DNA from: Amoebophrya sp. A120
Taxonomy: Eukaryota > Protista > Dinoflagellata
Length of the DNA: 64,000 bases
Direction of reading: 5' to 3'
Assembly (NCBI GenBank): GCA_905178155.1
Contig: CAJINV010000009.1
Coordinates: forward strand, 789,349 to 853,348
Numbering within the stretch: the first letter of the stretch is position 1; each line of letters begins with the position of its first letter. The notes beneath the pieces are model-generated. The model was not told where the DNA came from, did no database searches, and saw only the letters and a program-made list of their open reading frames with translations. Made by a program: the position numbers and the translations under genes. Shown here one piece after another: positions 1-48,927 of the stretch.

Positions 1-852
1 CAGACCTCCCCTGCAATGCTAGCAAAGCAACATAATTATTGATGATGATAATTATGATGATGATGCTCAACTTGAAAGAAGCTCGCTCACGAGCAACGCG
101 TCACTTCTGTGAGCTCTTCATCGCAAGTGGTAACTTACAACCTTGGAAGTGGTTCCGTTTCGTTTTCTCCGCTTCGTCGATCCAAAAAGACAGGCTCGGC
201 ATCACAAATTCACGTAGCTCGCTCCGGCTACAGCGATCTAAGTACTCAGGTTGCGATTTTGATTTTTCATCTGAACTCCACCGTGTGATGATTGCAGTAT
301 CAGTTTCAGTAGTGCATAATCTGTGAAAGATAGAGATGCACTTTGAACAGGCTGCGAGCGCTCCATTATTCACAGTCCTGAAAGAGAAAGCAGTTGTCTC
401 ATGTTGGTGCTGCGAGGCTATTAAGGGTAGTAGACGTAGAGAGAGACAGACGGCAAGGGAAGCCCTGTTATTCAAAAAGTTTTTGCCCGAAGGAATAAGT
501 AGCTAGCAGTGTATCCACCTGCCCTATGATTACCGACCACTCATATGTGGATAGTTTGTTTCTGGTATTTCTATAAATAAATCGCCCACAGTATACTAGG
601 TTTAGATTATACAACTCACAAAAAGTGTCTTTTAGCCTTAGCTTATAGTTATAATATCCAAGGATGAAGTTGAACGCAAGCTGCATGTTGCAGTTCTTGC
701 TCTTTACACAGTACAAATCGACGTTTCTTTGTCGGGAGGTGGCTGTGTCACTTCCGTTGCTCCTCCTGTTGGTGCTGTTCTACGAATTCGGGGGGACAAC
801 TGCTATTGGAGCATCCACGACCAGTATTTACGGTGAGCTACCGGCGTTTAAC

Positions 853-17600: not shown

Positions 17601-20600
17601 CGCTCAGGACGAATACAACTTCGACGCGGTGACGCAGCGGCTCAAAGCCTGCGTGGACTGGTTCTGTAATTGCTGCGGTGCAAAGCTGCTTGTGTCCCAC
17701 AAGATGCCGCAGGTCTTTCGCGGTACAGTCCGCTGTGGCGAGTGCGGCGCCGCGAACCACGCAGAGGTCCAGTTCCGCCGGCGCACGAGGCTCGACGAGG
17801 ACGCAGACTCGCCCTCCAACATCAATAGCTCCCCGCAGCCACTGCCCGAGGTTGGCAGTCGGGTCTACGACCCCTCGCTACGCTGGTCGGCGTCTAACTT
17901 GATGACCACGAATTTGGTGGAGGCCGCCAGCAGCCGCAATTCGCGCACGCGCATGTACGTGGAGGATCGGCCGCTGAGCAGCGACTTGGCCTACGTGGTC
18001 CAAAACGACGACGTGGACAGAAGGCGTCTCCACGCCTTGCAGTATCGAAACGTGAATTGCGGGGTGCGGTGGACGGTCCCTTTGGACGTTGCTGATGCTG
18101 GAGGGAAAGGCGATCGACTGAGCCGTAGCAATCCAAATCCTAGGCAGGATATCTTTCAGCTGAAGAACAAGACACAGCATCACGACGTTCTTGACGAGGA
18201 TGTTGAGGCTCGCCGGCTGCACGACCATGATGTAGCTCCTGAGAACGCGCTTGTTCCCGTGACAAGATCGGCCGATCATAACGCAAACGCAATAGCCGAG
18301 AGCAGACAGAAGATCGTGACGAGGAGCGCCAGTGCTATCGCTGTCAAATCGTCTATTGCGATCCCTTCCTTTTCGCTGAGACGGGAAGACATGCTCTACT
18401 CAGATTTTCAACGGCAACTGGTGAAGCTCGAGGGCCGGCTGGACAATGCGGACTATCCAAAGAAAAAAACCCATCCACATCCAATTTGTCATGCAAAACA
18501 CGTATAAAATCATGTGTTTGTCATGCAAAAAATGGATGTCGATGAGTTTTTTTCTGTGGAAACGGACGGTCGCGACAGTAGTAGCAGCTCGTCGTCGGCG
18601 GACGAAGGTGCTGGGCAGGAGTACGACGACGTTAATGCTTTGCGAGAAGCGGAGCGAGAAGAGGCTGTCCTTGGCATGAGCAGCATTCGAAATAAAACAT
18701 CGAACAGCGGGGGATTCGAGCTTGCTGGCCTGAAGAGTTTCGCAACCGTTACCGCACAAATGCGAACAGAGACCTTGCTCTCGCCAGGCAGCGAAGATCA
18801 TGGCTCTTCCTTCGTGGACGTTGCAGACAAAGTCGCGCAGCGGAGCAATCCTCCTGGGCTGACGCCAGCACAGCAGGCAGGGGTGCAGTCCATCCCAGGG
18901 CTAGAAGATGATGGCATCGTGGAGCCCGTTGCTGGTTTGCTGTCTGCGGCTTCACGCCAACTGGTCGTCGCAGCGGAAGTGAAGCATTCGTCCCCAACCG
19001 CTGTAAACCCTTTCAACGCAGCCGAGGACCGGCATTTTCGGATCGCCGAGGAGAGACGGATGATGCGCGAACTCGACCGCTTCCGCAAAACCGCGCAGCC
19101 GCGACTCGTCGCCGTTCCCTCGGCGTTTGCGCTGCAGCGCTGGAGCACGCTGGCCCGGCACCCCTTCGAGCGGTCCGCCACATACCAGCAGAACGCCGCG
19201 CGGTTCCTTCGCGAATTTGCGTGGCGGCGGTCCTACCCGTTGCGCGTCCGCGTGGTCCAACACGTCGTTTATGTCACACAGATGCCACAGGAGCGAGCCT
19301 TGTACTTGAACCGCGTCCAGTCGCTGCCGACCTGTCGGGAAGTCTACGAGTTGCCCGCCGCCGATGGCGTGGTCACGAGCACAACCCGCGGGGGAACCCA
19401 GCGCGACGCGGGGCAGCAGTTTGCCACTGGGAAGCACATACCGATCTCTAATGTGGAAATCGAGCGCCGTCGCGAATTGCTGGAGCTATGCTCGCACTTC
19501 GCAAAAGGTAGGAAGTACGAGAGATGCTGCGCTTTTTTTAGAGACCACCACCCGAGAGAAACTTCATTTTGATGATGAGCTGCTGCGTCTGATGGCTTTA
19601 GTACTATCTTCAGACGAGCAGGTCATGAGTCGGTGTGGGCTAAAGAACAAGAAGTAGATGTAGGTCTGCTTATAAAGGACACGCATGATCTCTCTTTGTC
19701 GCGTACGCGTTCGATTTCCACGCCACAAGAAAACGCCCAACCAAAAAATCAGGCACGCACGGTTCTGTCACCGGCGAGGTTCTTCGCGTGCTTGCTAAAC
19801 GGCGCGCTGATGTCGAGTCCGATCTTGCCCAGGTCGCCTATTTCTTGAAGCAGCTGGAGTGTTGTTTGCGCGTGCGCGTATTGGGGGCAGAGTCTCGAAG
19901 CAGCTCAGGATCGTCGTCGTCGGCCGCCGAGGGCGAGAACGAGGAGGAAGAGCCGGGTCTCTTTTCGTCTTTTTTCCCGACCACCATGGGCAAAAACGTC
20001 CGCAAGCAGCGGGACAAATATTACAGTGGCAGTGTTCTTGGGAGGAGCAACGTGCGGGTGATGAAACGCAAAGACTACAAGGAGACGGAAAACTCCGGAC
20101 CGTGGGCATCACAATCGGTTGCAAACTTGATGAGGGCTAATGATGCTAGCATGGTACACGAGAAGGGTCTTCCCAAACACTTGTCGGAGAAAATTCGAGC
20201 TGTGATGTTTCATCCAACGTCAAGTGCGGACACAGCCAGCGGCTCGGGTGGAGCCGCCTCGTCTTCGTCGTCCTCGGCACCAAGGAGCGGAGGTCCCTTG
20301 TTGGTGACAAAGACAGGCGCGGTGGTATCATCGACAACACTTGCAATCATCGCTGCGTCTGGTGCCGATACCATCAAGAACAGCGACCCTGTGTCGAACA
20401 AGGACAGACGTAGTGCCAGAGACGGGCTCGGTCCGGGGGAGCGCGCTACGCTGCTGGGCGGTGGTGGGGCGTCATCGTCTTCCTCGACCCTGTTGCCCCC
20501 ATTGTCTTCCTCTTCTAGTAGTAGCGCCGCCGGTGTGCAGCAAAATTTGGTTTCGGGCTCGACCAACTATGACCCGTTTGACTTGGATATGATAGTGGAT

Positions 20601-23600
20601 GCGGACGACGTCGAGTTCCCCCTCGCTGCGGGTAACTACAAGACATCGAACGAAGACCGCACACAGCTGCTACCGGACCCGGTATTGAGAAAGTTGCGTG
20701 ACCTGGAGAAACGCGCAGACGAAAATGCGGCAGCTTCCGGGTCGTCCGCAGAGGAGCAAGAAAGCGGCCAAGAACCTTTGGACTTACCGGGCATCGTAAC
20801 CAGGCTGCTGCGCCTGTGGAACGAAGAAGTTCCCGTGCTCGCATCCCGGTCCATATTCCACGATGCTTTCAAAGAGAACCGACCTGGGGACGGGGATCGG
20901 CTGGACGCGCTGGAAAACCTGGGAACCCTCTCCCGCCGGAAAAAGGAGGAGCAGTTGCAGATGCACGAGCGCGACCTGTCGCAGCTCATTTGTGCACAAC
21001 TGGACCGGTTGCTGACCGCCTATCAGCACTACAACTTCTTCCGCAAGACGCTGGACGTGTACGCCGACTCCACCGCCAGCTCCGCAGCCTCGTCGGTCGG
21101 CGGAGATGTTGGGGACCACCTGAGTGGTGTTGGCAGTGCGAAGAAGAACCTCGAGGCTTTTCTTTCTGATGGCAACACCTCTGCGCGAAGCTCCTCTTCA
21201 GGATCGTCAGGGTCCGCCGGAAACAACATCTCCAGTGATCAGAAAGTACTAGCACTAGACCAGCAGAGCATGAACAACAAACTCGCTGAGGATGCAATAG
21301 AAGAGGTGGTCTCGTCCGCTAAAAACGAGAAGCTGCAGCTCTCGTCGACCACCTTTCCGCAGGCCGATGCGGCTGCCAGTTTCACAACGAGAGTTGATGC
21401 GGCCGCAACAGGCGAAAATAATGCGGTCGTCGCCACAGCTAATGCCGCGATTGCAGTGCCAGCGCAGCTCCAGCCGAGTGGTAATATCACAACTTCGCAT
21501 GGCATCAAGAACCCGTCCAGGGCGGACCAGCGCTACTGCGCAATTTGCACGGAATACCACGACGTGTCCGAGCTGGGAATCACTCCGTGCGCGCACGTTT
21601 TCTGCGTAGTTTGTCTGAACGCGATGGTGGAGAACCAGTATGCATTGCAAAAGTATGGTACTAGTATAAATTGCATTACAAATTTTGGCAAGAAGAGAAG
21701 TCAAATTTGTAATGCTGTTTTACCTTAGGAAGAAGATTTGTCATGCATATTTGCAATTAGTACGAGTGCGATACTTTTGCACAGGATAACCAGCGGAAGT
21801 GCGCGATTTGCCGGCAGCCCTTGCACGAGAAGGACATTTTGTCGCTCTCTTCGGAGCTGCATGCCTGGAAGACGGAGGTGGTGCAGCAAGAAGAGCAGGC
21901 TACCATGGCGACGCTGGGCCAAGTAGGCAAGCGATTCCGCTACCAGAAACTCACGCGCGGCAGTCTGCTTTCGCCCGCCGTGAATGAAGGAGGTGCTGTG
22001 TTCGATCAGCCGGAAGCTCTTCTAGAGCCTCCGCGAAAGATATCAAAAAAGATGACCATGAAAGATATCAAGAAGAGCGTGGAGCAACAAGACCACTCGC
22101 CCACCCACGGCCGCTTTTACCCAGCCAAAAGACAGAAGCAGAGTCCTGACGGAAAAAAGAGTCAGAAAAATTTTGCTGGAGGAGCGCAGAACAGGAAAAA
22201 TGCAACCACCACTACGTCCGATGAGGAGCTTGACCCGCAATGCTCCGCGGTGACAATATTGGAGGACGTCGCAGGGCCGATCGACTTCGTCCGGACGTTG
22301 ATCCCCAAAGGACAAATCGCTTTTCCAGTAGCAGCGAATGTTGGCAGCACGACCGCCAACGACTCATCTACTTCGTCCGCGTCGTCTTCGTCCTCCTCGG
22401 CAGGAGCTGGCAATGGAAAAAATGAAGCCGCCGTGAGCAGCACAACTTCAACTGTATGGAAGAGTCAGAATCGAAATCAACAAAATCGAAATAATTTGTG
22501 ATGCATAAAATCGATACCAGTTGGAGCCTCAGTTTCCAAGTAGTGCATGACAAATTTCGGGAGAACCAAAATCCAGTCCGTCATGCTGCTTGGGAAACGG
22601 AGACTGCTCCTGTCATGCTACCCGGGAAGCACATCGCCTTCCCCTAAACAGGCTTGCAAGCGGTTTCACTTGCCTGCTCCCCAACACAGGCTGCGCGTGC
22701 CCTACATTTTATGCATGACAAACTATTTCGATTTTGTCCATTTCGATCCTGACGCATCCATAAACTGAGAAAGAGTTGTATCCCCTCGTAGACATAGCGG
22801 CGACGTACGGGTCGAAGATGCAGAAGCTAGCGGAGCTACTGACGAAAATCAAGGGCGACGACAAAAACGCAAAGATCCTGGTCTACTCCCAGTGGGACAA
22901 GGGAAACAAGTTGGCCTTCGAAGCCCTGCAGAACCTCCAACACTTGAGCTGCCACCTGTTCAACGGCGGCGTTGCCGCGAAAGCACGCCTCCTTCGCCGG
23001 TTCGCGGACGCCGAGCCGGGAAAGGCATCATTAGACGTGCTGTTGATTATGGGACTCTCAAATGTTACATTCTCAACTGTTACACGATTTGTCATGCAAA
23101 ATTTCCGTCAATAGCTACATGATCAAGCTGCTTCGCATGACAAATTCCCGAAGAGCTGCCAGGCTGAAAATCTACTGTGCCAAATCTGTCATGCAAGATG
23201 CGCTAGGTCTCCCGTCCCCTTTCACGTTTGCCATTCCTGCATCACAAATTCATGCAACAGGAGTTGAGAATGTAACGTTTGAGAACACCATATTGATCCC
23301 CCTGGACTTCGGGGCCAGCGGTTTGAACATGGTGCTCGCACAGCACATCGTCTTCGTGCACCCCTTATCAACTGCAAAAATGTCTGGGTCTGGAAAGTTG
23401 GAACTTGTGATGCAAATTTTGGAATCTAGAAAACTCTGTATTGCATGACCAGCAAGAGGAGTCCAGTTTCTGCTATGCGGGGAGGCCATTTGTCATGCGG
23501 AATAGGCATCAAGAAGCACTCAGAAAATCTGTGATGCCAGGGAATACATCACAGACGTCACGGGCCATGTGAAATCTGCATGACAAGTTCGCATCCTTCC

Positions 23601-23840
23601 AGACCCAGACACTTTTGCATTTGATACCCCTTCAGTTTTCCCTCCGTCGCCCAGACGCGGGCCGCGGAGGCGCAGGCCATCGGCCGGGTGTGCCGGCCGG
23701 GGCAGGCACGCGGAGACATCCACGTGTGGCGACTCTGCACTTTGAACACTGTGGAGGAGGAACTTATCAACGAACGGTGCGGAAATGGCTCCTCGACGGG
23801 TGGGAATGTTTTTCATGAGGAGCAGGCTGCTCCTGCGTGA
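11652..23840 (+). CDS. SNF2-family helicase/ATPase with C3HC4 RING finger (RAD5/RAD16/SHPRH/DNMT5-type architecture); 8 exons: 11652-13724, 13885-18453, 18568-19507, 19753-21638, 21794-22454, 22768-23047, 23298-23365, 23632-23840
   Basis: Motif I RGGVLANPVGAGKT, Ia ATLVFVPGHLVDQW, II RRVVFDEMHE, III KWGLTGSP, RING CAIC..PCAHVFCVVC..NQ|RKCAICRQPL, YGSKMQKL, IV KILVYSQW, V VLL|IPLDFGASGLNM..AQHIVFVHP, VI EAQAIGRVCRPGQ. The model uses two GT-AG introns (13725-13884, 19508-19752) and five hairpin introns; every junction is frame-consistent. Confidence 0.88.
13725..13884 (+). other. Canonical GT-AG intron (160 nt)
   Basis: AAG|GTAGTC ... TTTTCCAG|TTC; joins ORF 11613 to ORF 13903 in frame. Confidence 0.72.
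18454..18562. mobile_element. Introner-like non-canonical intron, family B (109 bp)
   Basis: Imperfect ~30-bp TIR TATCCAAAGAAAAAAACCCATCCACATCCA ... TGGATGTCGATGAGTTTTTTTCTGTGGAAA; direct repeat CGGAC 18449-18453/18563-18567; removing 114 nt gives DNAD|GRDSS and removes an in-frame stop. Confidence 0.88.
19508..19752 (+). other. Canonical GT-AG intron (245 nt)
   Basis: AAAG|GTAGGA ... AATCAG|GCACG; frame-consistent between ORFs 18514 and 19788. Confidence 0.72.
21639..21788. mobile_element. Introner-like non-canonical intron, family A (150 bp), inside the RING finger
   Basis: TIR TATGCATTGCAAAAGTAT ... ATACTTTTGCACAGGATA; direct repeat ACCAG 21634-21638/21789-21793; removing 155 nt supplies the final CxxC of the RING; interior homologous to 944-1103. 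Confidence 0.93.
22455..22762. mobile_element. Introner-like non-canonical intron, family D (308 bp)
   Basis: ~57-bp imperfect TIR starting TATGGAAGAGTCAGAATCGAAATC and ending ...TTTCGATCCTGACGCATCCATA; direct repeat AACTG 22450-22454/22763-22767; removing 313 nt gives TTST|EKELYPLVD in frame. Confidence 0.9.
23048..23292. mobile_element. Introner-like non-canonical intron, family E (245 bp)
   Basis: 31-bp TIR TATGGGACTCTCAAATGTTACATTCTCAACT ... AGTTGAGAATGTAACGTTTGAGAACACCATA (4 mismatches); direct repeat TTGAT 23043-23047/23293-23297; removal restores helicase motif V. Confidence 0.92.
23366..23626. mobile_element. Introner-like non-canonical intron, family C (261 bp), inverted relative to the other two family C copies
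   Basis: TIR TATCAACTGCAAAAATGTCTGGGTCTGGAA ... TTCCAGACCCAGACACTTTTGCATTTGATA; direct repeat CCCCT 23361-23365/23627-23631; removal joins VFVHP to FSFPS..QAIGRVCRPGQ. Confidence 0.93.
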
Positions 23841-24424
23841 AAGGTGGTTCCTAGTGCGACGTGAAAGCGTTCTCAGTCAGGAAGCAAGTTTGATCATCCA
23901 GTATCTCTAACTCTATCTCCAAGAGTGTATCAGTCTACCTTCGGCAACTACAAGAAGAACAAGCGCGCCAGTGCAGTACTAGCAACAGTGATGTAAACGA
24001 CGCGGCGGGTTCTCGCAGGGCGCAGCGGCCCATCGACATTCAAATTCCGAATTTTTGAAAACAACAAGAGGCGAAAAAAGAGCCCCCGAGAAGACACACA
24101 AGAACCTACAAAGAGTAGGTTTCTTTCGTCTGAGAGTGCTGGCCGAAGGCGAAGATATTTGTTCGCGGATGTGGTTTTTTTTTGGGCATAGGAGGTCTCC
24201 TTTGTTCGCTTCGGTTCTTGTGCTTCTTGGTCACTTTATTTGCACCTCGAGTCCTCTGATCCACTACTCGAGGATTCTTGGTGATCGTGCTGTTGTTCGA
24301 CCCGCCTCAAAAATCTTTCTGCATACACAACTAACTTCCATCAGAGCAGCATGTGGTCATTGCTTGGGCTAGTGCTTGTGCTCAGACGTGTCCCTGTCTG
24401 AAAAAGCAAAAGGACACCGTAAAA

Positions 24425-26779
24425 ATGCAGTCCCTCGAGGTTTATCAACTGTAAAAATGTCTGGGTCTGGAAGATTCTGACACTTGTCATGCACGTTTTG
24501 CATGAGCCACCATGTCTGTGATGCATACCCTAGCGATACAGATTTTTTGAGGGCTTCTTGATGCCTATTCCGCATGGGAAATGCCTTCTCAGCGTAGCAA
24601 AAATTGCATTCCCTTTGCTACTCACGCAATACAGATTTTTTTGGAGTCCAAATGCAGCATCACAAGTTGCATTCTTCCAGACCCAGACATTTTTGCATTT
24701 GATGAGGTTGAGGTCGAGCTCGACGAGTTGGATCTACCGCGGCATGGGGATGAACGGTACGGGGTGGATGACGGTGCTCTATTTCGGCACGAATCGTCCG
24801 AGAGAGTTGTAGTCCCCTCACCGCTTGCCAACCACGGCGCCTCGTCCTCCTGCAGCTCTCGCTACAGCACGATCGAGCTCTTGTGCCAGAACGCCGGTTT
24901 TGACAGCTACTACGCCTTCTTCCGGCGGTTGTTTCTGCATTCTGTGCTCTTTTTCGCAATCGCCATCATCGCCATTCCCTTTCTGGTGATGGACCACCAC
25001 TCGTGCGCAACAACGGGCTACCTGGGGGTCATCAGCCACCTGTTTTTCCTGTTGCTGCTCTACGGATCGATTCTGGAGGAGCTGCGTTGCGCGTGCAGGT
25101 TCTTCGACCCAACGGAAGATGGTGGCAGCAGATCAAGCAGTCCGAGCGGCGGTTCGTTTTCCGGATTTTTCTCCATTTTGTCTACAGCAGTAAGCCCGGG
25201 CGGCGGTGGTTCGGCTTACGATTACTTGGAACAGTTAAAGGAATACACGAAGGACTACGATGAACAGGTTGAAGAAGCCACTGTCAGGAATTTCGGAACT
25301 ACATCTTCAACCACGTTTGTTCGCGGTGGGCCGGCAGCACCTACGTCATCAGCACAAATGCTGGAACAAACCTCGTCTGCGTTTTCGTTTGCAACGTCAA
25401 GCACTAGCCGCTTCGAAAACAAAAGCAAGACATCAAACTCTTCAACTGCCGAACTGGAGATCGACACTAGCACCGGCGCGAACAAAAGCAGCACTGCCTC
25501 CGCTGCAACCAGTTTAGCCACGATGATTGGCAGCGCCACCCGGTGGAAAGAATCACCAAAAGCGGCAGATGTGTTGGAGCACGAACTAAGTGGAGGAGCG
25601 GCAGACGCTAGGAACGCGGCGCCACAAGGAAGCGGAAAAATGACCAAATCTTCAGCTGCGTCCTCAAGAGGCGACGTTGTCGTGGTCGAGTTGCGACCAG
25701 ACCAAGAAAGCGGAGCAGCTGTATCAACTTTTGTTCCTTCGCAGTCGTCGCCCCCACCGAAGAGAACAACGAGCGGCAATCTGTGGACGAGCTTTTCGAA
25801 TGCGGTTTTGCAGCCAATCACCAACACCCTGACCATCACGTTCATTCGGTGTCACTACATCACCCAGTTCTGCAGGACTTGCTGCGATTACTTTTTTTTC
25901 GAGGAGCTGTTGCACTTCTTCAAGAAGAACGAGAACGCGATCCTGGTTTTGAAGCAAATGACGTGGCGATTGGACATGTATTGCGACATTTTGTTCGTGC
26001 TCATCGCCAGAAATTGCGGCTCTTACCTCTGGTGGGCGAGTTTGGCGATTTTCGTCTTCGTGAACTTCTTGCTGCAATTCGTCCTGCAGATTTTGTTCTT
26101 CGCCTGCACCGACTGCGACCAGCAACTGCCAAAGTCGACCGGCTTTTTCTGGCTTGACTTCGTCGTCGTCAATAAGGCGGTCCTGGTGCAGTTGCGCAAG
26201 ACGGAGATCATGGTCGCTCGGCAGGAGAATTTGGGGAGCGATAGCCAACCACAAACGATGCAAATAATCGCTGCGGGAAGTTCAGGTGGAAACGAAATAG
26301 TAGCTCCATTAGGACTTGTGCAATCGTCATCTTCGTCTCCGAGCAGCCTCAGCTTCGTCGATAGTTCCAAGAGCACGAATCTGCTCAGTTGGGTCCAGTA
26401 CGCCATCATGATAGAAAAGTGTTTTCTGTCAGATCTGATTCAGATTTTGATTCAAACAAATTTCCTGCTTGACCTCTCTACCCCAAACAATAGCCTTGTG
26501 TACTGCAGTGTGCTGTTTAGCTTTGTGAACTTTTTGCTGAACTTTTGTCAAATAGTAACGGGGGTGATATGGTTTTACCGGAGGCAAAGAATAGCCGAAG
26601 AACGTATGAAGTCACACCTTGAGGCAATAAAACATGATGAAGAAGCGATAATATCGAGTAGCCTAGGTGGAGCTTCAGCTACAGGAGGGGGATCCAGCAC
26701 TGGTGGCACGCTTACAGCAACCGGGTCCACTTCCGCTTCAACTACTCAAAATGAATTGATACCGACAGGGAGAGTTTGA
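24425..26779 (+). CDS. Multi-pass membrane protein of unknown function; exons 24425-24442, 24710-26779
   Basis: ATG CAG TCC CTC GAG GTT joins ORF 24581 after removal of element 24443-24704 (MQSLEV|EVELDELDLP); several hydrophobic helices; RLDMYCDILF and SDLIQILIQ loosely recall XK-like membrane proteins (weak). Confidence 0.7.
24443..24704. mobile_element. Introner-like intron, family C (262 bp)
   Basis: TIR TATCAACTGTAAAAATGTCTGGGTCTGGAAGA ... TCTTCCAGACCCAGACATTTTTGCATTTGATG; direct repeat AGGTT 24438-24442/24705-24709; the 267-nt removal is in frame and can also be read as GT(24440)-AG(24706). Confidence 0.9.
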
Positions 26780-27205
26780 TTCGCATGGATCATTGTGCCA
26801 ACGGACTTCGATTTGCGCCACTGCATCAGCATCCAAGACGATGGGGCAAACCAAGAATCTAGTGATTGACCCAATTTCTAAAATCGAGAAAACATGTTCA
26901 GACTCTGTTTTTTGCAACTGCAACGACGATTAGTAGGGCGACGTTTGTTGTATTAGGTTACTGTGGTCGTTTGCGTTCTTACTTGAGAGAGTTGGACATC
27001 AAATCATGAATTGCATCTATTGATGCTGATCATTTAACAGTTGGAGATGACGAGAGTTTTGCTTTTGCAAGGTAGCAGTAGCACCACCACCAATAAAGCA
27101 CATCTTTTTTTCGTTGTTTGCCAAGCGCGGCAAATAAGAACGAAAAAGAAAAGGCTAAAGAAGTCGACGCCAGCATTCTGTTGAGCTTTTTTCGAGTGCA
27201 AAAGA

Positions 27206-29476: not shown

Positions 29477-29989
29477 GAAGCTTCCAAATGTCGATCGTGT
29501 ACAACGCGAATAAGCAGCACTACCACTAATTACATAGAAGCATAAAATCATCGACCCTGCTGAGTTTCCAAGAAGAAGTTTGATTGTTTCTGACGAAGGC
29601 ATACCATGTTGATACTTGTAGCTAGCGCGCTCGATGTTCTTCATGAATAGTCGTCTTGGAGCAGCAAGGCGTTGAAGTTGTGATCCACAAGAACAGCAGA
29701 TCTGTTGTTGACGGTCTCGACGTCCCATTAGTTCGTGATCAAGGTTGTGGCCATTGTACCGTTCTCTTGCAAGCGTTCTTGGTTCTTATCGAAAGCGTTG
29801 GTTGATTTCTCAGGCGCAAGGGATAGAGTAGTATCTTCGTCGTGCCTAGCAACTTGAAATTGTGCGGCGTTCTTCCGATCATCAGCGCATCCTCGTTCCT
29901 TGTGTCCAGTTGTATTCGATCCATACATTGTGAAAATCGTGGGTAACGATAAACCCTGGTGCGCGGTTTCAGCTTGGTTCAGTCGAAAC

Positions 29990-30910: not shown

Positions 30911-31703
30911 CCACGTTGGCGTTCTTAGCGAGGATGTCGCAACCACAAGACAAGGAAAACTACAGTGGAGGACGCCCGATATCCACCATGTGCTGTGTAA
31001 TCATAAAAAAAACACACATCGCTCTAATCGAACTCACGACCACCTCCGCGACCACCACTTCCAAAACATAGACGAATGTAAAGTAGTAAAGCCAGCATAA
31101 CAAGCGGTAGAAACTAACTTTCCTTCTACTGGCAAGAAATCCCTCGCTTTTCATCAATTTTCATCGTGTGCAGCTTACATTGCAGAGCAGGAGGTGGACG
31201 CCGCCGTATTATAATTGCAAGGAAATGCAGAACCTCGTCAACAACCACGAGAATATACTGAATACCACAACCAAGCTCCTTCTTCTGAAAATAATTTTGC
31301 TGATCACCAAGTAGATGAATTTGAATTTATGCAGTTGCGGCAGTTGTACTCCTGAGGCTGTTGCTAGCACGCAGTAGTCGTAGTGTGTCATCGTCATTGG
31401 ATATTTCCACCTTCCTGTGTCGCTCGAGCACTATCGTTTTCATCATCGCATAGCTTCCAAAACTACGATGATCTTCGTTGGTCGGTCTTTATCCGAGAAG
31501 AAATCATGATCATCAATTTCACTCGTGATCAAAAGTCGGTGCTGCATAGAATTCCCCTTGATTTTTTGGATCACTAGTTCGCTACAAGATTTCTGTTTTT
31601 TTCTTCCCCAACATGTGAGTTAATAACGTTGCTTCTTGCGCCAGCACCTTCGCTTTCTTATCAGTTCTAGCGTTGTCGTTGTGGCGCTTCCAAGATTACC
31701 GAG

Positions 31704-37700: not shown

Positions 37701-37801
37701 TCGGTGATGGAGGTGTAAGACTCTCAAGACACAACGCTTGTCCTCCGCGCCATTGCACCGCGACTGCATGTGAGTTTGAAGATGATTTTGTACACATTTG
37801 A
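31704..37801 (+). CDS. Large hypothetical protein, possibly with a divergent LicD/fukutin-related (FKRP-like) C-terminal domain; exons 31704-32219, 32432-37801
   Basis: A GT-AG intron 32220-32431 (212 nt) joins the two ORFs in frame (KETTT|DKLNHY). The C-terminal PVCVRQAQSNALSKVVAWWES ... ALNAFR ... LFPWSPDLDL resembles the FKRP/LicD pattern PPCC..LR..GSLLGA.R..IPWDxDxD. The 5' end may extend further. Confidence 0.6.
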
Positions 37802-38161
37802 AGAAATAGGGAAAAACAACTCGATTGGTAAGTGCTATCATCGACAGGACAATTTTGAGTTTTTGCAGCCTCTGGCGTCCGGAGTGTGCAGTCTTGGTGC
37901 AGTTCTTCTTCAATGTGATACTCTATTCAACACTCTAGAACTAGACAAAACGTCTATCCGCAAGTGAAAATGATCGACCCTGTTGTAATTGCCGGCTTGT
38001 AAAAGCAGTTTCATGATGTCTTTGCCATTCCACAACCTCCGCGATTTTTTAGTGTTCGTTTTCAGTTGCAACAGCCGTATTTGACGTTGGCAAAATGAAG
38101 CCGCCGGACTCTGCGTGTTCAGTTTGACGGGAGAATCACGCCCCTCTGTTGCAGCAAGAAC

Positions 38162-39165
38162 ATGGTGCCTCGCGGCATCTTCCGCGAAGCTACTCCCGTC
38201 ATGGGAGGAACTTCCAGCTCGAAAACAAGATTCCGCGAGACGAGTTCGGTCGTTCGCACAAATAACGTGTGTCTTCGGTTGTTGGGACTGATTTATTTCA
38301 GTCTCCGCACGGACCTCTCCCGCGCCAGCGTAGACGAAATGGACAGCGACTTCCTCGGCGAGTTCTTCCAGAAAAGTGGGAATCACGAGCAATTCCTCAT
38401 GCTGATTTACTCAAGTGAGAATCAGAATTGCTTTGAAGGCGATGCGGCCAACTGCAGAGAAGCGCTGTCGTTATTGAGCCGCGCAGAAGACCTGATTGCC
38501 GATCAACCAAGTGGCGAGATGGTGCCGATGGGAAAGATTGGAGTCGACAGCGAGGAAGGAAAGCACGTAGAGAACTGATTCACATTTTGCTCCTGTCAAA
38601 TGAATGTAGTACCGTATACAAAAAAGAAAAACTAAACCGTTTTTGCAACGTGAAACTGAAAGTAGAAGCTTGTCTTTTCTAGTCGAAAGAATGTGAATGA
38701 GAAGCGAAGAAGATCCGAGGTTTTTCGTCCAAACTTGGTGTCGAATTAGGAATGCGCAACAAGGCAAAGTAAAATGAAACAAACCAGTTCGCCGCGAAGG
38801 AGGGAGTGGTCTTCAAATCAGCTGCGGACAAGTTGCCCCAACTGCGGTTTTACTACTGGAAAAAAGGCATGCCAAAAGTCAGCTTCGAGGAAATCGCGAT
38901 CCCGTTGCCCATGGAGCAAGAAACGAGGTCCGCAGAGGAGAACGCGGTCACCTTGGTAACGCGGATAAACTCGGCACACGCGAAAGTCGGCATTCCACGT
39001 CCCGCCCTGGTGGTGCCGCCAACATTTCGCAAGACGCAAGCTATAGCAGGGGAGAAATCAAGTAGTTCCAAGAAGAAAAACAAAAAACGAATTGATGCAC
39101 CGCAGGTAGATCAGCTGCAATTCGGACCTTCGATTAAGATCTCACAGTCAGGGGCTGATCTTTGA
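38162..39165 (+). CDS. Thioredoxin-fold protein without CxxC, paralogue of the downstream gene; exons 38162-38566, 38788-39165
   Basis: GT-AG intron 38567-38787 in frame; VPMGKIGVDSEEGKH|FAAKEG..LPQLRFYY..VSFEEI aligns by eye with VPVGKINIEDKPGRE|LAEKEG..LPSLRLYY..VSFERI of the next gene. Confidence 0.7.
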
Positions 39166-39545
39166 AGGAAATGTTTACTACTCTGCTCTCACAAGCCCTA
39201 TCGCGCACGGCTGCAGCATTCTTGTAGTTACAAAATCGCACACAATCATGATTTTCTCAGCGCCCACGCTTTCTTTCAAACGAAGAAGAAGAAGAGCCAC
39301 CAGAATCCTTGAAACTCGGAAAGTTTCTCAACAAGGAATCTGATATGTCATCTGTCGTGTTTGTCACATCACACGGACACGCCAACGTCATATTATACTG
39401 TGCCTATGCTAGACACTGAATTTTGATCAGTTCGACAAGACCGACGATTTCGATCAACGTCTTTTCTCGTTTCGAAACCCTGTCACACATCTAGGCTATT
39501 GATCCCAAAGAATTATTTTCGTTCGTAGAACGCAAAACGAAAAAA

Positions 39546-40136
39546 ATGTTGCGACTCGTCCTCGCGTCGCTCATCACGCTCTCCACACAAAGGACCGCTG
39601 TAGCCCTGAAGGAGGTTTCTGCGTCTATTCTGGATGACCTGAAAACTCCGTATCTGGTGGAGTTCTACTCTAAATTTTGCGGTTCCTGCACCGAATTCAT
39701 GCCGACAGTGGAAAAGACGGAGAAGCTCTTGAAGAAAGCAGTGCCAGTAGGAAAAATCAATATCGAGGACAAACCTGGAAGAGAGGTAAGTTATGTTGAA
39801 TAAGACATTGAGCGTGCACAACTTGTACTTTTTCTTTTTGCCCCACCGCATCCTATAGATCCTGGAACTGCAGCACATTGCTTCTCTGACTCTGTGTTTT
39901 TCCGCGATAAGAAGGGCACAAAAACAATTTCATTTTCCATTTCAATCCAGCTTGCGGAGAAGGAGGGCGCGCTGGAAGATGGCTTGCCTTCCCTGCGTTT
40001 GTACTACAAAGACGGCGACACAGTCAGTTTCGAGCGCATTCTCGAGCCAGACACGGTTGACTTCCCCCCCGCGGAAACCCTTGCGAAGAAGGTAAAGGCC
40101 ACTTTGAAGAAAATCGGTAAGAGTGGCGAACTGTAA
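39546..40136 (+). CDS. Secreted/ER thioredoxin (PDI-like single domain), CGSC active site; exons 39546-39785, 39951-40136
   Basis: Signal-peptide-like N-terminus, YLVEFYSKFCGSC, GLPSLRLY cis-Pro loop, C-terminal SGEL (KDEL-like); intron GTAAG...TCCAG 39786-39950 (165 nt). Confidence 0.85.
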
Positions 40137-41195
40137 ATGCGGTTGTGCCGCGGCTTTGTTGATGATGCCACTAGTTGTGGGAGATCTTGCTAGATACAAA
40201 GCGCTAAAGGAAGACTGCGCGCTTCTGCAATACAACAGCCAGACCCTCCTGTCATCTGTGGAATCATTAATCCAGTAGACCAATTTGTCGCATGAAAAAA
40301 ATCCTGGGTGCAGCTCAAGGTCAAGCGCACATACAAGACTACCGTGCGACCAGGTTCAGGAGGACTTGGACTGGCAGAAGGCGACTTTTCTGTCCACTGA
40401 TATGAGAACAACCTGTACTTCACAGGATGTTGATTCTCGCGCGAAGGCAATCACGATTTTCGCTCATCTTGATCGTTGATCGTCCTCCTTGTTTCGGCTG
40501 TTGGATACATAGAAGTCGTGCGTGGATAGAAAAAAAAAGGCAAAGAGCAGTCGAGCAGATCTTCATTCCTATTCAGTGACAGTGATTGCCGAAGATCTTC
40601 TGGACATGAGCAATTCGTCTGGTGTAAGAAGTTGGTTGCGTAAGCTGCAGCAAGAAAGATCTAGCTAGTAATCGCGATGCGTTTGCTTACGGCTTTTACG
40701 CCACAAGATCCTACACGGTACTTCACGCGCCATCCAGCGGTAACAGCGAATTTAAAGATTTGATAGTGATACACTTTTTACTATGTGTGCAAAGGGAAAG
40801 GGATGCTGGAGCTGGTTTTCTTCACTGCGATGGCTAAGACGATGAGCAATCGCAATGTACAACAAAGCCCGTGCCAGCTTTTGATAGTGAAGATACTTGA
40901 TACAAGAGTGTCGGCATATTCCATTTGATTTTGATCTTGTCAACTCTAGAATGATCGTGCAAAAATGAAAATCGTCTTCATCGTTTGATATATTTCATCT
41001 CATCTCCTACCTTTAGTTTATGTTTTGGTTTTGGATCATGACTTGTTTTCCGTCCGTATTTATACGTAGACACTGCAAGCTATTGTCATAGATATATTTA
41101 CTACGTACGATAGTGCCACGAGCACGACTAAATTCTTTATTTTTCTACATCACAAAGAAAGGCCGGCATTTGCATGCCACCTCAGCCCTGACCTT

Positions 41196-44100
41196 ATGTC
41201 AACAGACAAAAGAATGTGCACAATTAGAAAGATTGAAAGAAGCCGGGCTAAGGTCCTGCATTGGATTCTTTTTCTCGTCGCCGGGGGATTTTTCGATACC
41301 TGGCAAGCAATCGCAACGGGCATTCGTGGAAAAACCGCCACGGCTTCTGCCACTTTAAGTAGGCAGGAAGACGCTTCAGCTTTTTCCAGACCTAGCAGTG
41401 CCGGCGATGCACATCCGGTCGCTTCTCCGGTCCGCAAAATAAAGACTGACGCGAAGCAGATCCTGGGCGGCCCCCGCAGCTGGGAAATGCAATCTTTCGC
41501 CCAGCAGCTCCTCGCCAATGCTCTTGACGAAGGTAAAGAGCCAGGAACTGAAGGCACTGGAGAATCATCTGGGTCGACTTCCTCTGCTTCGCCGGCTTCC
41601 AATTATGCAAATGACAGTGTAAGTGTTGTTACTCCAGATGCTGACGTGCGGAGGAACCATAAAGGTAACAAAATCTTTGCGCCAAGAGCCTGGGCGGCTT
41701 CAGGACGACGCGCCGCAGACGAGCTAAACCGAGCGGCGTCGCAGGTCGTGTCATCGATCACTCCAAGCGACAGTAACACAGAGGAAGATGCGACCCTCCT
41801 CATCCATAGCGGACGAGATGTAGATGATCCCAGCTTGTTAATGTCCTTGCTTGCTAAGGCGAAGGCGACAACTAGGCAAGATGAAGCACTAGTAGCTAAG
41901 CGCCGCGAAGGTGGTGAATCAGCTTTCCCGATCGTCGAGAAATACGCTGCTCTAGAAGGAAAGGGCTCGAGCATCCTCGAGCGGCAAGCCTCTCTTCAGG
42001 TTCAGCAACAAAGTTCATCTACGACTGGTGCTGCTCCTGAACTCACGACACGCACCGTGCCTGAAGTGCAGCAGTCGTATTCGCATCCAGAAGCAGGAGG
42101 AGCAAGTAACCCAAATGGCTCATATTTCGTCCAACCCGAGAACTGTCTGATGCCCATGCCACCTTTTCCGGGAACAGCAGCAGAACGACTGTACAGTAAC
42201 GGCGCACCATCGATTCGTGTTCAGGACGAATTGTGCAACTCCTCTTATTTTCAGTGCAGCGGCGAGCCACTCGATAACTTTTTCGCACAATACGGCAGTG
42301 CGTACTTCGTCTGCCCGCCACAAAGAGGCGAGCGAACGCCATGGCCACCGGTGCCGGAGATGATGAACTCTTCTCATTTTTTCCAATCTTCGTGGTCGGG
42401 ACCTTCAGAAAGCGCTGCTGGCGCAGCTAGCACACCGTTTCTACATGAGAGCATGATCGGCCGAGGTCCTTCGTCAGCGATGCATCATGAAGACTGGCAT
42501 GTGAGACAAGATTCCGCCATGGCCGCTGCTGCACACGTCAAAAGCTGCATCGAACATGTCAGAGCGCTAGCGGCGCAGGCTGTAGAAAGGAAAACGACGA
42601 CGCTTGACCTGAATACCTCTGGTGCGGCTTCAAGCTCTTGCGGAAGTGTTCCTCAGCCCGCTGGATTAGGACATCAAGCACGACAAGGGGCATCTGCCTC
42701 TAGTTGTGCTTCCGACTCTCTCCTAGCTAGGCATGATTCGGACGACCCACAATTCGACTACGCAAATCCAGATCATGATCAGCAGGTCTTCCGTGACTAC
42801 AGCTACTTTGACGTATCACCAAAGCCTCCTGTGATCTGTGACGATCCAGCTTTTCATGATGCGACAGGAAGTGCATGGGACGACACATCAGAGACAGAAT
42901 CCCGGCACGGGCAGCCGCCGGAAGGATGGATTTGGGTTCCGAAGGCGAAGCAACAACTGGCTGCTGACGTTGAGCCCGAGGAAACTGCAACCAGCAACAT
43001 GCGAGACGGCCGGAAACGCAAATCACCCAAGAAGCGTAAGCAAGATCATGGAGATGCGCTGTTCAGGCGTCAGTCTGCCATCGCAACCACAGGCGTCAGT
43101 CCGCGAACGCAACCACCAGAATTCATTTCGAGGGATGGCACTGGCCAGCATGAACTGCAGTCGGCTGAGCAGCATGCAGATGCAGCAGAAGATGCAAATA
43201 AGGAACGGGAACGGCCAAGTTCTGGGGGTCATCCATATGAGGCTCCTTTCTCACACGCTGGAGCAGCGCACAAGACCACCGGATGCAACGGCTATACCGC
43301 AGGCCAACGCACTGCCTATTACGCAGGCCAGTCCATTCACCACGTGGAAGCAGGGGCAGGCACCAGTCACGTTGCAGATCGACAGCCAGCGCCAGACGAG
43401 GTACCTCCTGAGTACCAAGCGTTGTGTTCCACCTACACGCAATCACGGCAACAGCTCCCGCACGCAGGTCGACCTTATCCGTCCCCTGCAGCTGCTCCGC
43501 CCCCGGGTTTTGTTTTTGCCGACGAGTACGGGACGCCGCTTGCTTCGGGAGGTCCTTTGGAACTGACACGTCAACTCCCTCCAATGCCGACGCCTCCAGA
43601 TTTTTGGGTCTGGAACAACCGTACAAATCACTACGAAACAATCATGCAGCCCGGCACCAGTTCTAGTTTGTGCACAACGATGTGGAGCAGGGGCCGAACT
43701 GAAGTTGTCAAGTCGGGAATATTGTGTTGTGCAGCCGAATCGTTCAGGCGCGCAGATGCAGCGGCTGGTGCGCACCACAGCGGGACCACGGAGAGCCATT
43801 TCGTGGACCGGACTATGGCAACGACGCTGCCAACGGTCACGGTGCGCGAAGCGGCGGAGAGGTGGTTGGCTATGCAGGCACGGCAAAGCTTGAAGGCGGG
43901 AGCAGAGACGCGATCGAGTTCTGTTCACAATCAAGGTTCTTCTATCACCAGTTCCAGTTGTACCGATCAGGCCAACATGACTTCGCAGCGTGCGGGCACT
44001 TCGTCGTCATCATCTGACGTTACCGGTAGGGAAACTTCAGTGACGGCGGCCAACATCCGGAAAAAAGAAAGACAGAAGGCAGACAAGAAACTGAAATCAA

Positions 44101-45984
44101 AGGCTCGAGGTTCTTGTGAGGACCATGGGCTTTTTGCAGATGGCACCTACACTACGAAAGAAGACGCGAGGTTCAGCGGTAGTGCAAAGAGCGCTCCTGC
44201 TGCAACAAAGACCAAGAAAAAGAAAAAGCGCGCAGCGAAGAAACCTACCGCACTTGAACTTGTTCGACCGGTGTTACCTGTAGGCGAACAATCGCGGTAC
44301 TTCTACGGAAGCCCCCAGAGCGCTTCCGGAACATCAGGAAGCAGCGCAGCTCACCTTTCCGATCGTGCAATCGCAAGGCCAAAACCAAGGCCGAAGTTCC
44401 TCTGCGGACCGGGGAGCCACATTAAGTCGCTCGTACGGCGATGCGGCGCTGGGTCTTCCGGACCGTTGTCTGGCTTTTTGCCGCCCCTACAGATGATGGA
44501 ACCTGTCCCGGAAACTGACTCTGTAGACGAGCAAGAGGAATCGCGAGAGGAAAATCTGATTTTTTCCTTTCCAGGACCAGGCATGGGCGATAAAGATAAC
44601 CAGGGTAAAATCAAAGCAGACAATGGCACCGTGCTGGAGGTGGAGAAAGCGCAAACAGAAACATCAGCCCCGTCTATTGGCTCTGCCTCCTCTTCTTCCA
44701 ATAGCGGATCTTCGTTTGAATTCCCGCTCTCGCTAGAGAGTCCAGCAAGTACAGGAGAATTTTTGGAAGATTCTGCAACAGTGTCTACTCTGGCTGTCTC
44801 AGGCCGTGGCTCAACCCAACAAATAGGCTCAGCGCCGGTCACGTTGAATCCTGCCGCCTGGCTGAACGGCGCCACGCCTGAGGTTTTAGCATCAGACATT
44901 GATCAGCGAGATGATCAAGATCATTTCCCGAAAGACATGCACATGGAGTGGCTCACGTCGAGCTCGAGCAAAGAAGACCTGAATCCGCCCGAAAAATTGT
45001 CGATATCGCGCCAGTCCACTGCTTCCCCTGCTGGTCCGCGACCCATGGAGACTAGCGCTCCTTCGAGTCCGACTGAGATGGAGAGAGAAGCCGGCCTCCC
45101 CGAGGCTGGTGCAACATTCGACCGAGCTCCGACCGAAAAGTCCGAGACCGATGCGTTAGACTCAAACGCAGATTTTTCCGATGCGTACTATAACCCCTAC
45201 GACCAATATCTGCAAGTGCGCCCTGCAGAGGAGCTGCGAAGTCTGTTCAGCCACTTACCCGAAAGATACCGGAGCTGGGTGGAAGGAGAGCAGCAAGACA
45301 CTAGAACAGGTTCCGATTACGGACGATACGAAGCATGGACTGGTCGGTCAGGCTGGACAAAAAACCACGACGATGTGCCTTATTCTAGTTCTATTGCTGT
45401 CTCGTCACGGTGGAATCATCACCGACCTGAAAGTCGCCACGACTATTCAACCGGTCGCGGTTTCGATACCGGAGACGCATGGACCCAAACCCAGCACAGG
45501 GCGGAGCGCGCGTCGACAGGTGGGGGAAAAAATACTCAGTGGAAATACGGGGCGGGGGGGCCACACCCAAGTGATGAAGGTACTGCTGCTTGAGGATTCC
45601 CCTCGGGAATGTATACAACGACAACGTGTGTATTCTCCCTTTTGAGTCTGATGATCTTTACGCACCGCACTTATTTCTATCGCTTGATGCTTTCAGTGAC
45701 TACGTACGAGTACAAGAAGACTTTCATGGTTTGAACCCGGCTGATTGTGATATTCTCCTCCTCTTAATCCTTCAGGTTCCTGGTCGTCCTGGAAAGCAGA
45801 GGGTGGCTACACCACTGCGCACGTCGACGAACGGAATACGCGAGAGCGTTACAAGGCATCTTCTTCTTCCGGCCCTCGACGACCTCAACGCAATGGCCAC
45901 AGAGAGCGAGAAGCCACCGCACCAAGGACAAGGACGAAGGCGTACACAGACAGATATGGCAGGGAATGGCGGAAAGTTGCATAG
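41196..45984 (+). CDS. Large low-complexity hypothetical protein; exons 41196-45579, 45776-45984
   Basis: 1465-codon ORF with an N-terminal hydrophobic stretch; a probable GT-AG intron 45580-45775 extends it in frame (SDE G|SWSSWKAEGGY...REWRKVA*). Confidence 0.68.
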
Positions 45985-47143
45985 ATTGATAAACAAGCAC
46001 GGCGGCTGTAGTCTACTTCTGTCCTCATATTTCAGAGCTACAAGAATAATTTTAGGCGAATTTCTTATTGTCGGTCGTAAGGCCGTAAACATGTAATTTC
46101 ATATGACACCCGAGATTTTCTTATCTTTTCGCTCTCGAGGCGACACACCAATGTCCTGGCGCAGCCATTCTTTTTCATGCATGTCGCTTCTAGATGAGTC
46201 GATGCATAATTTTGAAGGCAAGACAGCTGACCGCTGCCTACTGTCAACATGTCTGATCATATAGAAGCGCCGTCTTTTTTTGTTTTTCTGCTTCTTGCGC
46301 TTACGTTCCTGCTAAAATCAATGCACATAGCAGGTCGTATGATCTTGTTCTACAACTTCGCACAGTTTTTAGATGTTCAGACGCACCATTTCACTTCACA
46401 TATAGTAGGTACTTATGTGCTTACATCTTTCATCTTTAACTGTGCCTACTAACGCCTGCAAAAAAAAAAAACGAGGACATCGAATTTTCCGTTTTGTGAT
46501 TATCAAAAATCAATCTGGATATTTGCGAACTTTTGTCGGCCGCCTGTTAAAACAAAGCAAAGGCTTAGGTATTTCAGCCAAAGCGAAAACAGAAACCAAA
46601 AGATGCGCACCCGCATCATCCTTTTTTTGTCGCCCCACCGGCATCAACAAGCCAGCGAGCAAAAGTTTTGTGCTGGTGTTCGTGTTCGCTGCAGTCTCTA
46701 CATTTATTTTTACTCCTCGCACAGTGTCAGCGCATACGCATAGTGGTCAGACGCAAATTCTTTTGGTCATCGGCTCGAGCTAATGTTTTTTCGTCACATC
46801 CTGCATAGTTCGTCGTGTTGTTTTTTTCGTTAAGTACACTTCGTTGGTTTTTTTATGTCGGAAGCGGAGGGTTTTTTCATTTAAATTTTGTTCTCCTGCA
46901 GCTGTGTATTCAATGCAGAGCAGCGCCGGTTTTTCATCACGACGATCGCAGTAGGTTGTTTGCAGGGAATCAAAAAACCGGGCGGCAGTAGACTCTGTTC
47001 GACGTGCTTTCGATTGTTTTTTGGCTCTCTCCTAGTTCGCGTGAGGACCATCGAGAAACCACATAATTCGTTTTTCGTAGTAGTCGTCGTTCCCGAAATA
47101 TTAGTTCAAATTCTGCTAGAGCGTAATCATCAACATCAGCAGC

Positions 47144-48438
47144 ATGGGGTGTTGCGCTAGTGCGGACTTCCGCGCAGCAGATCATGGCGCGAACAAAGCG
47201 GAGGATGCAGTTGTTGGCGGAGCTCATAAGGAAAACGAGAACAACGCTGATGTGAACGTCCTCGGAGCACCACTACTCCTCACCGATGTCGACGTCCAAG
47301 TGAACAATAAAGCAGGTGGAGGCGCCAAGGCCAATGGCACAACGAGTAATTTTGAGGACCCCGAAGCGCTTTTCTTTCAGTCTCTCGACGAACACACCAA
47401 CCAGGTTCTGCTGGACTCGCCCAAAAATGAACACCACAACGAAGATGTTGAGCAAGAGCAAACCGAAATGAAGAATGAAGAAAGCAGCAACAGCGTCCTG
47501 CTCGGGTCGCCAGTCGAAGGTAGCACGGCAAAAGGCTCTGCCGAAGCCGATGACAGCGCAAATACGATCATGAGAGACGACTCGGCACCGGTCCGCACCG
47601 ATAGCATGACGATCGTCCCGAACAAGACCAAGAACAGCCCGTCCGGTGCCGGTGAAGCCACAGCATCTACTTTCGCGACGCCCTCGAATCTGTTGGACCG
47701 GAAGAAAGTCGACGTGGATGCTGCTCTGCAGGTCTACCGGAAGTATGGAAGCGTCAGGTGGGAAATCGGCGACATGGACCTAACGTGCAACGCATTTGTT
47801 TTTTTAATTGCCAGCCTTAGTTAGCGTGTTTTCTTGGCTCCTCGTCAAATTTAGTGTTGCATGCGATGGACATGAAATTGGCCTCATTCTGAGCTTGCTA
47901 CGATTCTTCACTTGACGAGTTGCTGAGAAGCGTGGCACGAAGTTCTTTTATGACGGCTTCGGAAAAATTTGAATTTTCCTCGCGCCGCTTAGCAAGCAGA
48001 AATGGTGGCCGCCAGCAGCAGCACAACTCGTGTCGATTTTATAAGGCACAACAGAGGCCATTACAACTTATCAAGTCGCTTCGACGATTTTCCACTTAGT
48101 ACCACTTTCATAGAAAGGAGCTGGCGAGTAGTCCGGATCGCACTAGTAGCGTCCACGATGCAGAGGACTTTGCAGAAAACGTGAAGCCAAAGACCCTCGG
48201 TCTGACCGACACGCGGCCCAAGGGGGGTGTCCGGAAGGCCTTAGCCACCGAAAAACCGTCGAACTGGGTATCCAGGAAAAAACACCCATCCCCATCCATT
48301 TTTTGTATGACAAATAGTGGATTTCATGCATGTCTTGCATGACAAATTGGCTGGGGATGGGTGTTTTTTCCTGGATACTGGGTCCCCTTCGTCTCCAGCA
48401 TCCACCTCCGGCCGATTATGACATCGGAGAAAAGATAA
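47144..48438 (+). CDS. Hypothetical protein with N-terminal MGCC myristoylation/palmitoylation-type motif; exons 47144-47757, 48114-48268, 48383-48438
   Basis: MGCCAS start; GT-AG intron 47758-48113; element 48269-48377 carries an in-frame TGA and its removal gives KPSNW|VPFVSSIHLRPIMTSEKR*. Confidence 0.7.
48269..48377. mobile_element. Introner-like non-canonical intron, family B (109 bp), inverted relative to 18454-18562
   Basis: Perfect 26-bp TIR TATCCAGGAAAAAACACCCATCCCCA; direct repeat CTGGG 48264-48268/48378-48382; same length as the 18454 copy. Confidence 0.92.
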
Positions 48439-48927
48439 AATAAGTATAAGGCTGTTGCAGCTGCGTCGCCGGTTCGCAATAGTCTTTGCGTTTTTCGATT
48501 ATACTCCTACCTCTTTCTCTTTGCATGCGGACGGTGGCTCTGAAGCCTGTTCCCTGGGAGTAGACCAAGACCGCATCGTCCATCAAGAATTAGCATAACA
48601 AATTGACGAGGAGGTTATAATCAAAGCCAAAAAAAAGGCATGCAGCACATGCAGGAGGGCGGGTCCACAACGACAAGACGTAGAAAATAAACGAAAACTG
48701 AAAAATCAAAACGGCGATCGTGTTGAGCATGAAATATGGCCTTCAATTTTTCTTCCATATTTCTGAATTCCAGGAAAAAGACTACGGAAGAGCCTGTGGC
48801 TGAGGGCGACGAGGACTGATAGCCACTTTCGAGATAAACGAAGAAGACAAATTGCAGGGTGATGATAGAAGCAGAAGATTTTATAATCAATACGAGTCGT
48901 ATTAGACCAACATCAAACTCGTAACGA

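Follow-up and report, generated by a model that had tools for sequence, protein, structure and literature searches.

Two 109-bp introner copies in opposite orientations within coding exons of Amoebophrya sp. A120 and their probable removal as 114-nt introns

The stretch of DNA analysed here (the window) comprises 64,000 nucleotides (nt) of contig CAJINV010000009.1 of Amoebophrya sp. A120 and carries two 109-bp copies of a short element, termed family B, which are members of the already known A120 introner class of Farhat et al. 2021 (PMC7789003). Each copy lies within a coding exon of a + strand gene, copy 1 in P0001 and copy 2 in P0002, and each is bounded by terminal inverted repeats (TIRs) and a 5-bp target-site duplication. 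The host genes and the parts of the two copies are as follows (protein lengths in amino acids, aa):

11652..23837, + strand: host gene of copy 1 (P0001), 3529 aa, SNF2-related/RING protein, 7 introns in the public model
18449..18453: upstream copy of the 5-bp target-site duplication CGGAC at copy 1
18454..18562, + strand: copy 1 of the family B introner (109 bp) in the reference orientation, with a damaged 3' terminal triplet (AAA instead of ATA)
18454..18483, + strand: left TIR of copy 1, 30 bp, 26/30 complementary to the right one
18485..18495, + strand: inner motif TTTGTCATGCA, first occurrence in copy 1
18505..18507, + strand: TAA, in frame if copy 1 is retained
18517..18527, + strand: inner motif, second occurrence in copy 1, in the direction of the first
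18533..18562, + strand: right TIR of copy 1
18563..18567: downstream copy of the duplication at copy 1
47144..48816, + strand: host gene of copy 2 (P0002), 279 aa, without a Pfam family; the public model has three introns (374, 114 and 348 nt)
48264..48268: upstream copy of the 5-bp target-site duplication CTGGG at copy 2
48269..48377, - strand: copy 2 of the family B introner (109 bp), running opposite to copy 1 and to its + strand host
48269..48298, + strand: TIR of copy 2, 30 bp, 29/30 complementary
48304..48314, - strand: inner motif, second occurrence in copy 2, one change
48336..48346, - strand: inner motif, first occurrence in copy 2
48340..48342, + strand: TGA, in frame if copy 2 is retained
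48348..48377, + strand: TIR of copy 2, other side
48378..48382: downstream copy of the duplication at copy 2

The pair was described in an earlier note on this DNA as two copies of identical length, about half TIR, lying in + strand genes, containing in-frame stops, and showing both orientations, with the 18454 interior matching the reverse complement of the 48269 interior. All of these statements were borne out. The TIRs make up 60 of the 109 bp, and the quoted 43-nt interior strings are present and agree at 34/43 positions. Aligned without gaps, the copies agree at 86/109 positions in opposite orientation and at 62/109 when both are read in the same sense, and the inverted ends account for the latter value. 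After removal of 30 nt at either side, the interiors are identical at 40/49 positions when one is reversed and at 16/49 in the same sense; a chance match was rejected, since 2000 shuffles gave a mean of 13.9 (standard deviation 3.1) and a maximum of 26. The element has a polarity of its own because its interior contains two copies of the 11-nt motif in the same direction. The 5-bp direct repeats are perfect at both copies and differ in sequence between them. Family B begins with TATCCA, and the ends of both copies fit the published A120 introner pattern of TAT, 7 nt and at least 3 A. The search of the window against Rfam gave 0 matches.

The exon upstream of copy 1 returned a single protein in the search, P0001, and the first exon of the second host returned two, one of them P0002; both are 100% identical to the query and come from Amoebophrya sp. 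A120 (NCBI). Mapping of P0001 to the window leaves seven gaps: two GT..AG introns (256 and 245 nt), a gap of 114 nt at copy 1, and four more (155, 313, 250 and 266 nt), each of which equals a TAT..ATA element plus 5 nt. P0002 maps to the + strand with a 114-nt gap at copy 2, by which a host gene on the - strand at 48269 was rejected. Both models drop the element together with one duplication as an intron, and they constitute indirect RNA evidence because A120 gene models were made from transcript and protein alignments, with the longest frame per locus kept (PMC7789003). Element and duplication together are divisible by three at both copies, and removal of 109 nt alone was rejected, as a frameshift results. 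At copy 1, removal of the element length plus 2 or plus 5 is the sole way to obtain an open frame, of 1000 codons upstream (the full span examined) and 334 codons downstream; the frame test treats these two lengths as equal, and the figure of 114 nt comes from the models and the contig described below.

Four sequencing runs were compared with window positions 45500-51500: X1, which consists of contigs and is guessed to be RNA (9 records), X5, which is DNA-like with even cover (655 records), and the raw RNA runs X8 and X9, which gave 0 reads here and so do not bear on splicing. In X1, whose cover of the stretch is patchy, a joint that skips exactly 114 nt at copy 2 is carried by one contig (depth 3.1, with 40 letters on its short side); the upstream gene shows a GT..AG joint of 196 nt, and a loose end joins 47743 to 48118. 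None of the X1 joints is found in X5, whose contigs cross both junctions of the 48269 element. In X5, 58 contigs leave the window at the left end of this element and 41 at the right (six loose-end rows listed), and since the departing contigs have unlike flanks, family B is dispersed. Two outcomes that would have spoken against the earlier note, namely a better alignment of the copies in the same orientation and a 48269 copy outside the transcript, were not observed: alignment on both strands favours the opposite orientation, and the X1 contig and the P0002 model place the copy inside. We therefore conclude, with a probability of roughly 0.93, that the two elements of 109 bp belong to one A120 introner family, lie in opposite orientations and are removed as 114 nt.

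To place the pair within its family, a 24-letter pattern from the left part of the element was searched against metagenome and viral contigs. It gave 0 matches in the viral contigs and 27 further loci in metagenome contigs of a single accession prefix (another assembly). Their elements are 108-134 bp long, exactly 109 bp in 17 of the 27, and the 5-bp duplication is perfect at 18 loci, agrees at 4/5 positions in 3, at 3/5 in 3 and at 2/5 in 2, and is absent from 1. Locus L014 shares its flank with L022 and was left out, so that 26 distinct loci remain. Host strands were called with a codon-position model trained on eight window frames, under a conservative coding-score rule that makes no call for the window's own 48269 copy. 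By this rule 13 loci carry the element in the same sense as copy 1, 5 in the opposite sense and 8 are uncalled (p 0.096). L013, uncalled by the rule, was assigned by hand to the opposite class: once its two family copies and a third element are taken out, a 397-aa frame results, and its middle exon has a zf-AN1 match on the opposite-call strand, with the two family B copies lying within zinc-finger motifs. A second, same-sense copy is found at L017, and L020 has two family copies in opposite directions. The same-to-opposite tallies are accordingly 13:6 with L013 added, 14:8 with the extra copies and 15:9 with the window pair (p 0.17, 0.29 and 0.31, respectively). Copies of 108, 110, 111, 119 and 125 bp cause a frameshift unless their length plus 5 (or plus 2) is removed; one of them, the opposite-sense 111-bp copy at L024, places a frameshift between 477 and 492 open codons. 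L010 and L023 are silent on splicing because their frame stays open with the copy retained. A second family of the window likewise occurs in both orientations (3687 and 24443 versus 23366), and its member at 23366 is an intron in P0001. Dense clusters of elements, up to five in 3 kb, are present at L013, L020, L002 and L025.

Two further introns of P0002 bear on the position of the cut:

47744..48117, + strand: older TAT..ATA intron, 369 bp plus the downstream 5 nt, duplication diverged at one base, without the inner motif
48417..48764, + strand: older TAT..ATA intron, 343 bp plus 5 nt, duplication beyond recognition

The 47744 intron limits the junction to positions -3..0 from TAT, and the 48417 intron, as read from P0002, to -1..0; in both the upstream copy of the duplication is kept. 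The protein P0003, from a 92% identical relative, reads into the 47744 element, so this insertion is shared. In the protein-based search for empty sites, no close relative spanned either family B site: P0003 ends inside the 47744 element, before 48269, and P0004 covers 15% of the query. The N-terminus of P0002 (47144-47161) reads MGCCAS, which we take to resemble a myristoylation and palmitoylation signal. The inner motif finds no match in the 47744 intron, which is nevertheless removed; the motif is therefore not needed for splicing, and the proposal of the earlier note that two TIRs plus two motif copies form a near-minimal unit was not established. The motif recurs in other families, with 29 of its 36 window matches within elements, and its likelier role is the binding of a mobility factor.

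On both strands of both copies, folding, a check proposed in the earlier note, predicts a long terminal stem (z -7.7 to -11.7, 0/200 shuffles). Among 19 copies, 8 of the 30 terminal pairs change on both sides, a covariation that was not accepted as RNA evidence because shared descent and DNA symmetry also yield it. With an element finder that tolerates damage at either end, 58 elements with perfect duplications were collected (49 in the 26 loci, 9 in the window), among which family B is the shortest class. The terminal triplet is damaged in 7 of the 58, and all 7 are hit at the transcript 3' ATA and 0 at the 5' TAT (p 0.016, post hoc), which may hint at a 5' end read for its sequence. The pair itself suggests that the cut is likely guided by the symmetric ends alone. 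As to the machinery, we somewhat favour removal as a non-canonical intron by a U1-less spliceosome that would read signals in these ends.

A number of observations weigh against this reading. No GT..AG or GC..AG occurs in any of the 6 and 8 equivalent registers at the two copies, by which a canonical intron in another register was rejected, and a canonical reading is possible in 3 of 51 elements. On the transcribed strand G-U is not favoured over A-C (25 versus 34, 42 of the 51 elements, p 0.30), so there is no sign of selection on an RNA stem, and the 48417 intron is without predicted pairing of its ends. The count of 3' damage is small and post hoc, and its p value becomes 0.06 without L002 and L016; host strands in this count are partly model-based, those of L002 and L016 coming from the codon-position model only. 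Same-sense copies exceed opposite ones in the overall tally. The copy 1 junction would follow from the gene model and frame logic, whereas the junction at 48269 is that of one contig at depth 3.1 from a run guessed to be RNA, and this contig may share source data with the gene models. One exact joint is seen at 48269, but contigs drop rare variants. Finally, one X1 contig retains a family copy at another locus, and another is located within the annotated third intron of P0002.

The same 114 nt might be removed without a spliceosome: the paired ends would be sensed by their structure, a nuclease would cut at set distances from the base of the stem, and ligation would follow, as in SOS splicing with RTCB or in the nonconventional introns of euglenids. 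The strong predicted hairpin on both strands, the lack of canonical dinucleotides in any register, the indifference to orientation and the covarying terminal pairs are all compatible with such a route, U1 small nuclear RNA (snRNA) was undetected in strain A120 (PMC7789003), and the known SOS splicing is triggered by paired inverted repeats of any sequence (PMC12779559). SOS splicing is, however, imprecise, with indels and many out-of-frame products (PMC12779559), whereas P0001 needs exact removal at five elements. The one-sided conservation of the 5' TAT also points to sequence rather than structure alone, G-U pairs are not in excess, the old 48417 intron lacks predicted end pairing, and the covariation is expected too from DNA-level symmetry and shared descent. 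Removal by such a route is the main rival in our view, though less likely than the U1-less spliceosome, which remains our preferred agent.

Two other explanations would limit or deny splicing in both directions. If the interior mattered, one direction having a better branch point or enhancer, opposite-sense copies would be removed less well and selected against. The same-sense lead of 13:5, or 15:9 in the fullest tally, has the direction expected of this, and the sole RNA junction seen has low depth; yet this imbalance falls short of significance, long frames and a zinc-finger gene are broken up by opposite-sense copies that bring in stops or shift the frame, and the single contig junction belongs to the opposite-sense copy, which makes a role of the interior improbable. 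It is more improbable still that the joined form derives from DNA, as an excision/insertion polymorphism among cells, or from models forced into a long frame, with the elements being ordinary gene-disrupting miniature inverted-repeat transposable elements (MITEs). X1 is a guessed RNA run, and the annotation takes the longest frame per locus; against this, X1 also skips a 196-nt GT..AG intron and has patchy cover, whereas X5 has even cover and no joined form. Transposon excision rarely restores a site exactly. In addition, 66,565 read-supported introns, 65% of them non-canonical, are reported for A120 (PMC7789003).

Family B is likely a non-autonomous DNA transposon. Insertion into exons occurs in either direction and leaves a 5-bp duplication, and a transposase from elsewhere may act by binding both the ends and the inner motif copies. 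Pairing of the 30-nt ends within the pre-mRNA is predicted for transcripts of either strand. The 5' cut would then fall at TAT or one base before it and the 3' cut 4-5 nt past ATA, so that the exon would regain precisely its original sequence; the length of 114 nt is that of the models and the contig, and the register is inferred from the two older introns of P0002. A spliceosome of U2, U4, U5 and U6, which are reported present in A120 together with 83/89 spliceosomal proteins (PMC7789003), may take TAT as a relaxed donor with the help of the stem, and the U-run mirroring the A-run of the element may serve as the 3' signal. Since both signals would sit in the inverted repeats, orientation should not matter. 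In the predominant non-canonical sites of A120, T is second in nearly all (Table S4 of PMC7789003). Beyond this, we tentatively propose a U1-free machine that would remove thousands of transposon-born introns, with the symmetric 30-nt end as the whole code; with similar reserve, its reading may consist of the 5' TAT and a fixed step of 4-5 nt past the mirror ATA, without an acceptor dinucleotide.

In A120 no U1 snRNA is detected and about two thirds of introns are without GT-AG. If one short family is taken out in either direction, the symmetric ends should hold the splicing signals, to the exclusion of the strand-specific interior; such removal would also explain how the elements can multiply inside coding sequence with little harm. 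The pair can be used as a test substrate to distinguish a rewired spliceosome from a hairpin-triggered SOS route, and older introns with decayed ends and duplications, such as those at 47744 and 48417, can fix the splice register genome-wide. If a U1-free, end-reading machine exists, an insertion would become an exact intron immediately, whatever its direction or site, and the 109-bp family would be the smallest natural two-orientation substrate on which a rewired spliceosome and a precise SOS-type splicing could be compared.

Other TAT..ATA elements with 5-bp duplications, belonging to several families, are found in the window at 944-1103, 3687-3962, 9354-9591, 21639-21788, 22455-22762, 23048-23292, 23366-23626, 24443-24704 and 31328-31548. 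Most of them contain TGT(C/G/A)ATGC as an inner motif of varying direction, and the element at 9354-9591 has the inner part of the family B inverted repeat in common. A much larger element of 3879 bp occupies 50377-54255; its ends are TTA..TAA, it has a short inverted repeat, and its 5-bp duplication (CCTAG) is perfect. It includes a 566-bp palindrome of 37-bp repeats (52023-52588), no transposase family was found in the six frames tested, and X5 depth on its left part is about 7x background. An X1 contig of 6546 nt has a loose end linking 50376 to 54261, by which the element appears to be skipped whole together with one duplication. A non-coding 45-bp direct repeat, 91% alike, lies at 48918-48962 and 49490-49534, where X5 depth is raised in the corresponding bins. 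All long frames in the window are on the + strand, like the one-directional gene clusters reported for the genus, and the Pfam scan of 16 window frames left 14 without a match.

Among known systems, the non-canonical introns of Fritillaria borealis and the introners of Micromonas and Aureococcus resemble family B as TIR-bearing, duplication-flanked elements turned into introns (PMC11282704). According to the same source, they use a U2-type spliceosome, one splice site may derive from the duplication, and the dinucleotides are preferred ones (AG-AC/AG-AT, or GT/GC-AG), whereas the family B duplication can have any sequence. The GT/GC donor and AG acceptor of U2-type introns are found at neither copy. 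Aureococcus introners were reportedly described in both orientations by Huff et al. in 2016. The nonconventional introns of euglenids are alike in MITE-like origin, paired ends, junction repeats and the lack of GT-AG; they are released as circles and belong to an unrelated lineage (PMC12501133; PMC11282704); their typical signature, CAG at +4..6 and CTG at -8..-6 (PMC11282704), is absent from family B, which has its own TATCCA start. PMC8469720, PMC11453091 and PMC13326754 were further sources for comparison.

The likeness to MITEs extends to short length, inverted ends, a duplication of constant length and many dispersed copies in both orientations: family B has 30-bp inverted repeats, a 109-bp length, no coding capacity, and a target-site duplication of constant length and free sequence. 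It differs in sitting within coding exons and being removed from the message. SOS splicing, described in C. elegans and human cells and requiring AKAP17A, CAAP1 and RTCB (Zhao et al. 2025, PMC12779559), also takes a TIR element out of mRNA at non-GU-AG sites and would ignore orientation; the predicted folds of family B place paired inverted repeats within an mRNA exon, as in SOS substrates. SOS splicing leaves indels, whereas the removal of family B appears exact and includes one duplication.

The closest counterpart is the A120 introner class itself, for which 29,850 repeated introns in 1,954 families were reported (PMC7789003). Family B shares with it the non-coding nature, the inverted ends of TAT, 7 nt and AAA, the 3-5 nt direct repeats at the borders and the predicted hairpin; the pair shows non-GT-AG borders, inverted ends, border repeats, genomic repetition and host genes whose proteins match two A120 proteins at 100%. 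In family B the ends pair over 30 nt, whereas motifs of 8-20 nt are given in the paper. The splice position of introners was left undecided there and no transposase for them was found in A120; the portions consulted contain no discussion of element orientation relative to the gene, of a shared inner motif or of 5'/3' asymmetry (PMC7789003). A method that allowed for opposite-orientation insertion was used by Gozashti et al. 2022 (PMC9860276), and diverse A120 introners, among them TIR-flanked ones with open frames like those of long-terminal-repeat elements, were described by Gozashti et al. 2025 (PMC12130899). In the portions of the literature searched, splicing of A120 introners in both orientations is nowhere stated; figures S19-S25 of PMC7789003 may show this family or its orientation. 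To this class the present analysis adds a short natural substrate occurring in both directions and a hint of a 5' end that is read as sequence.

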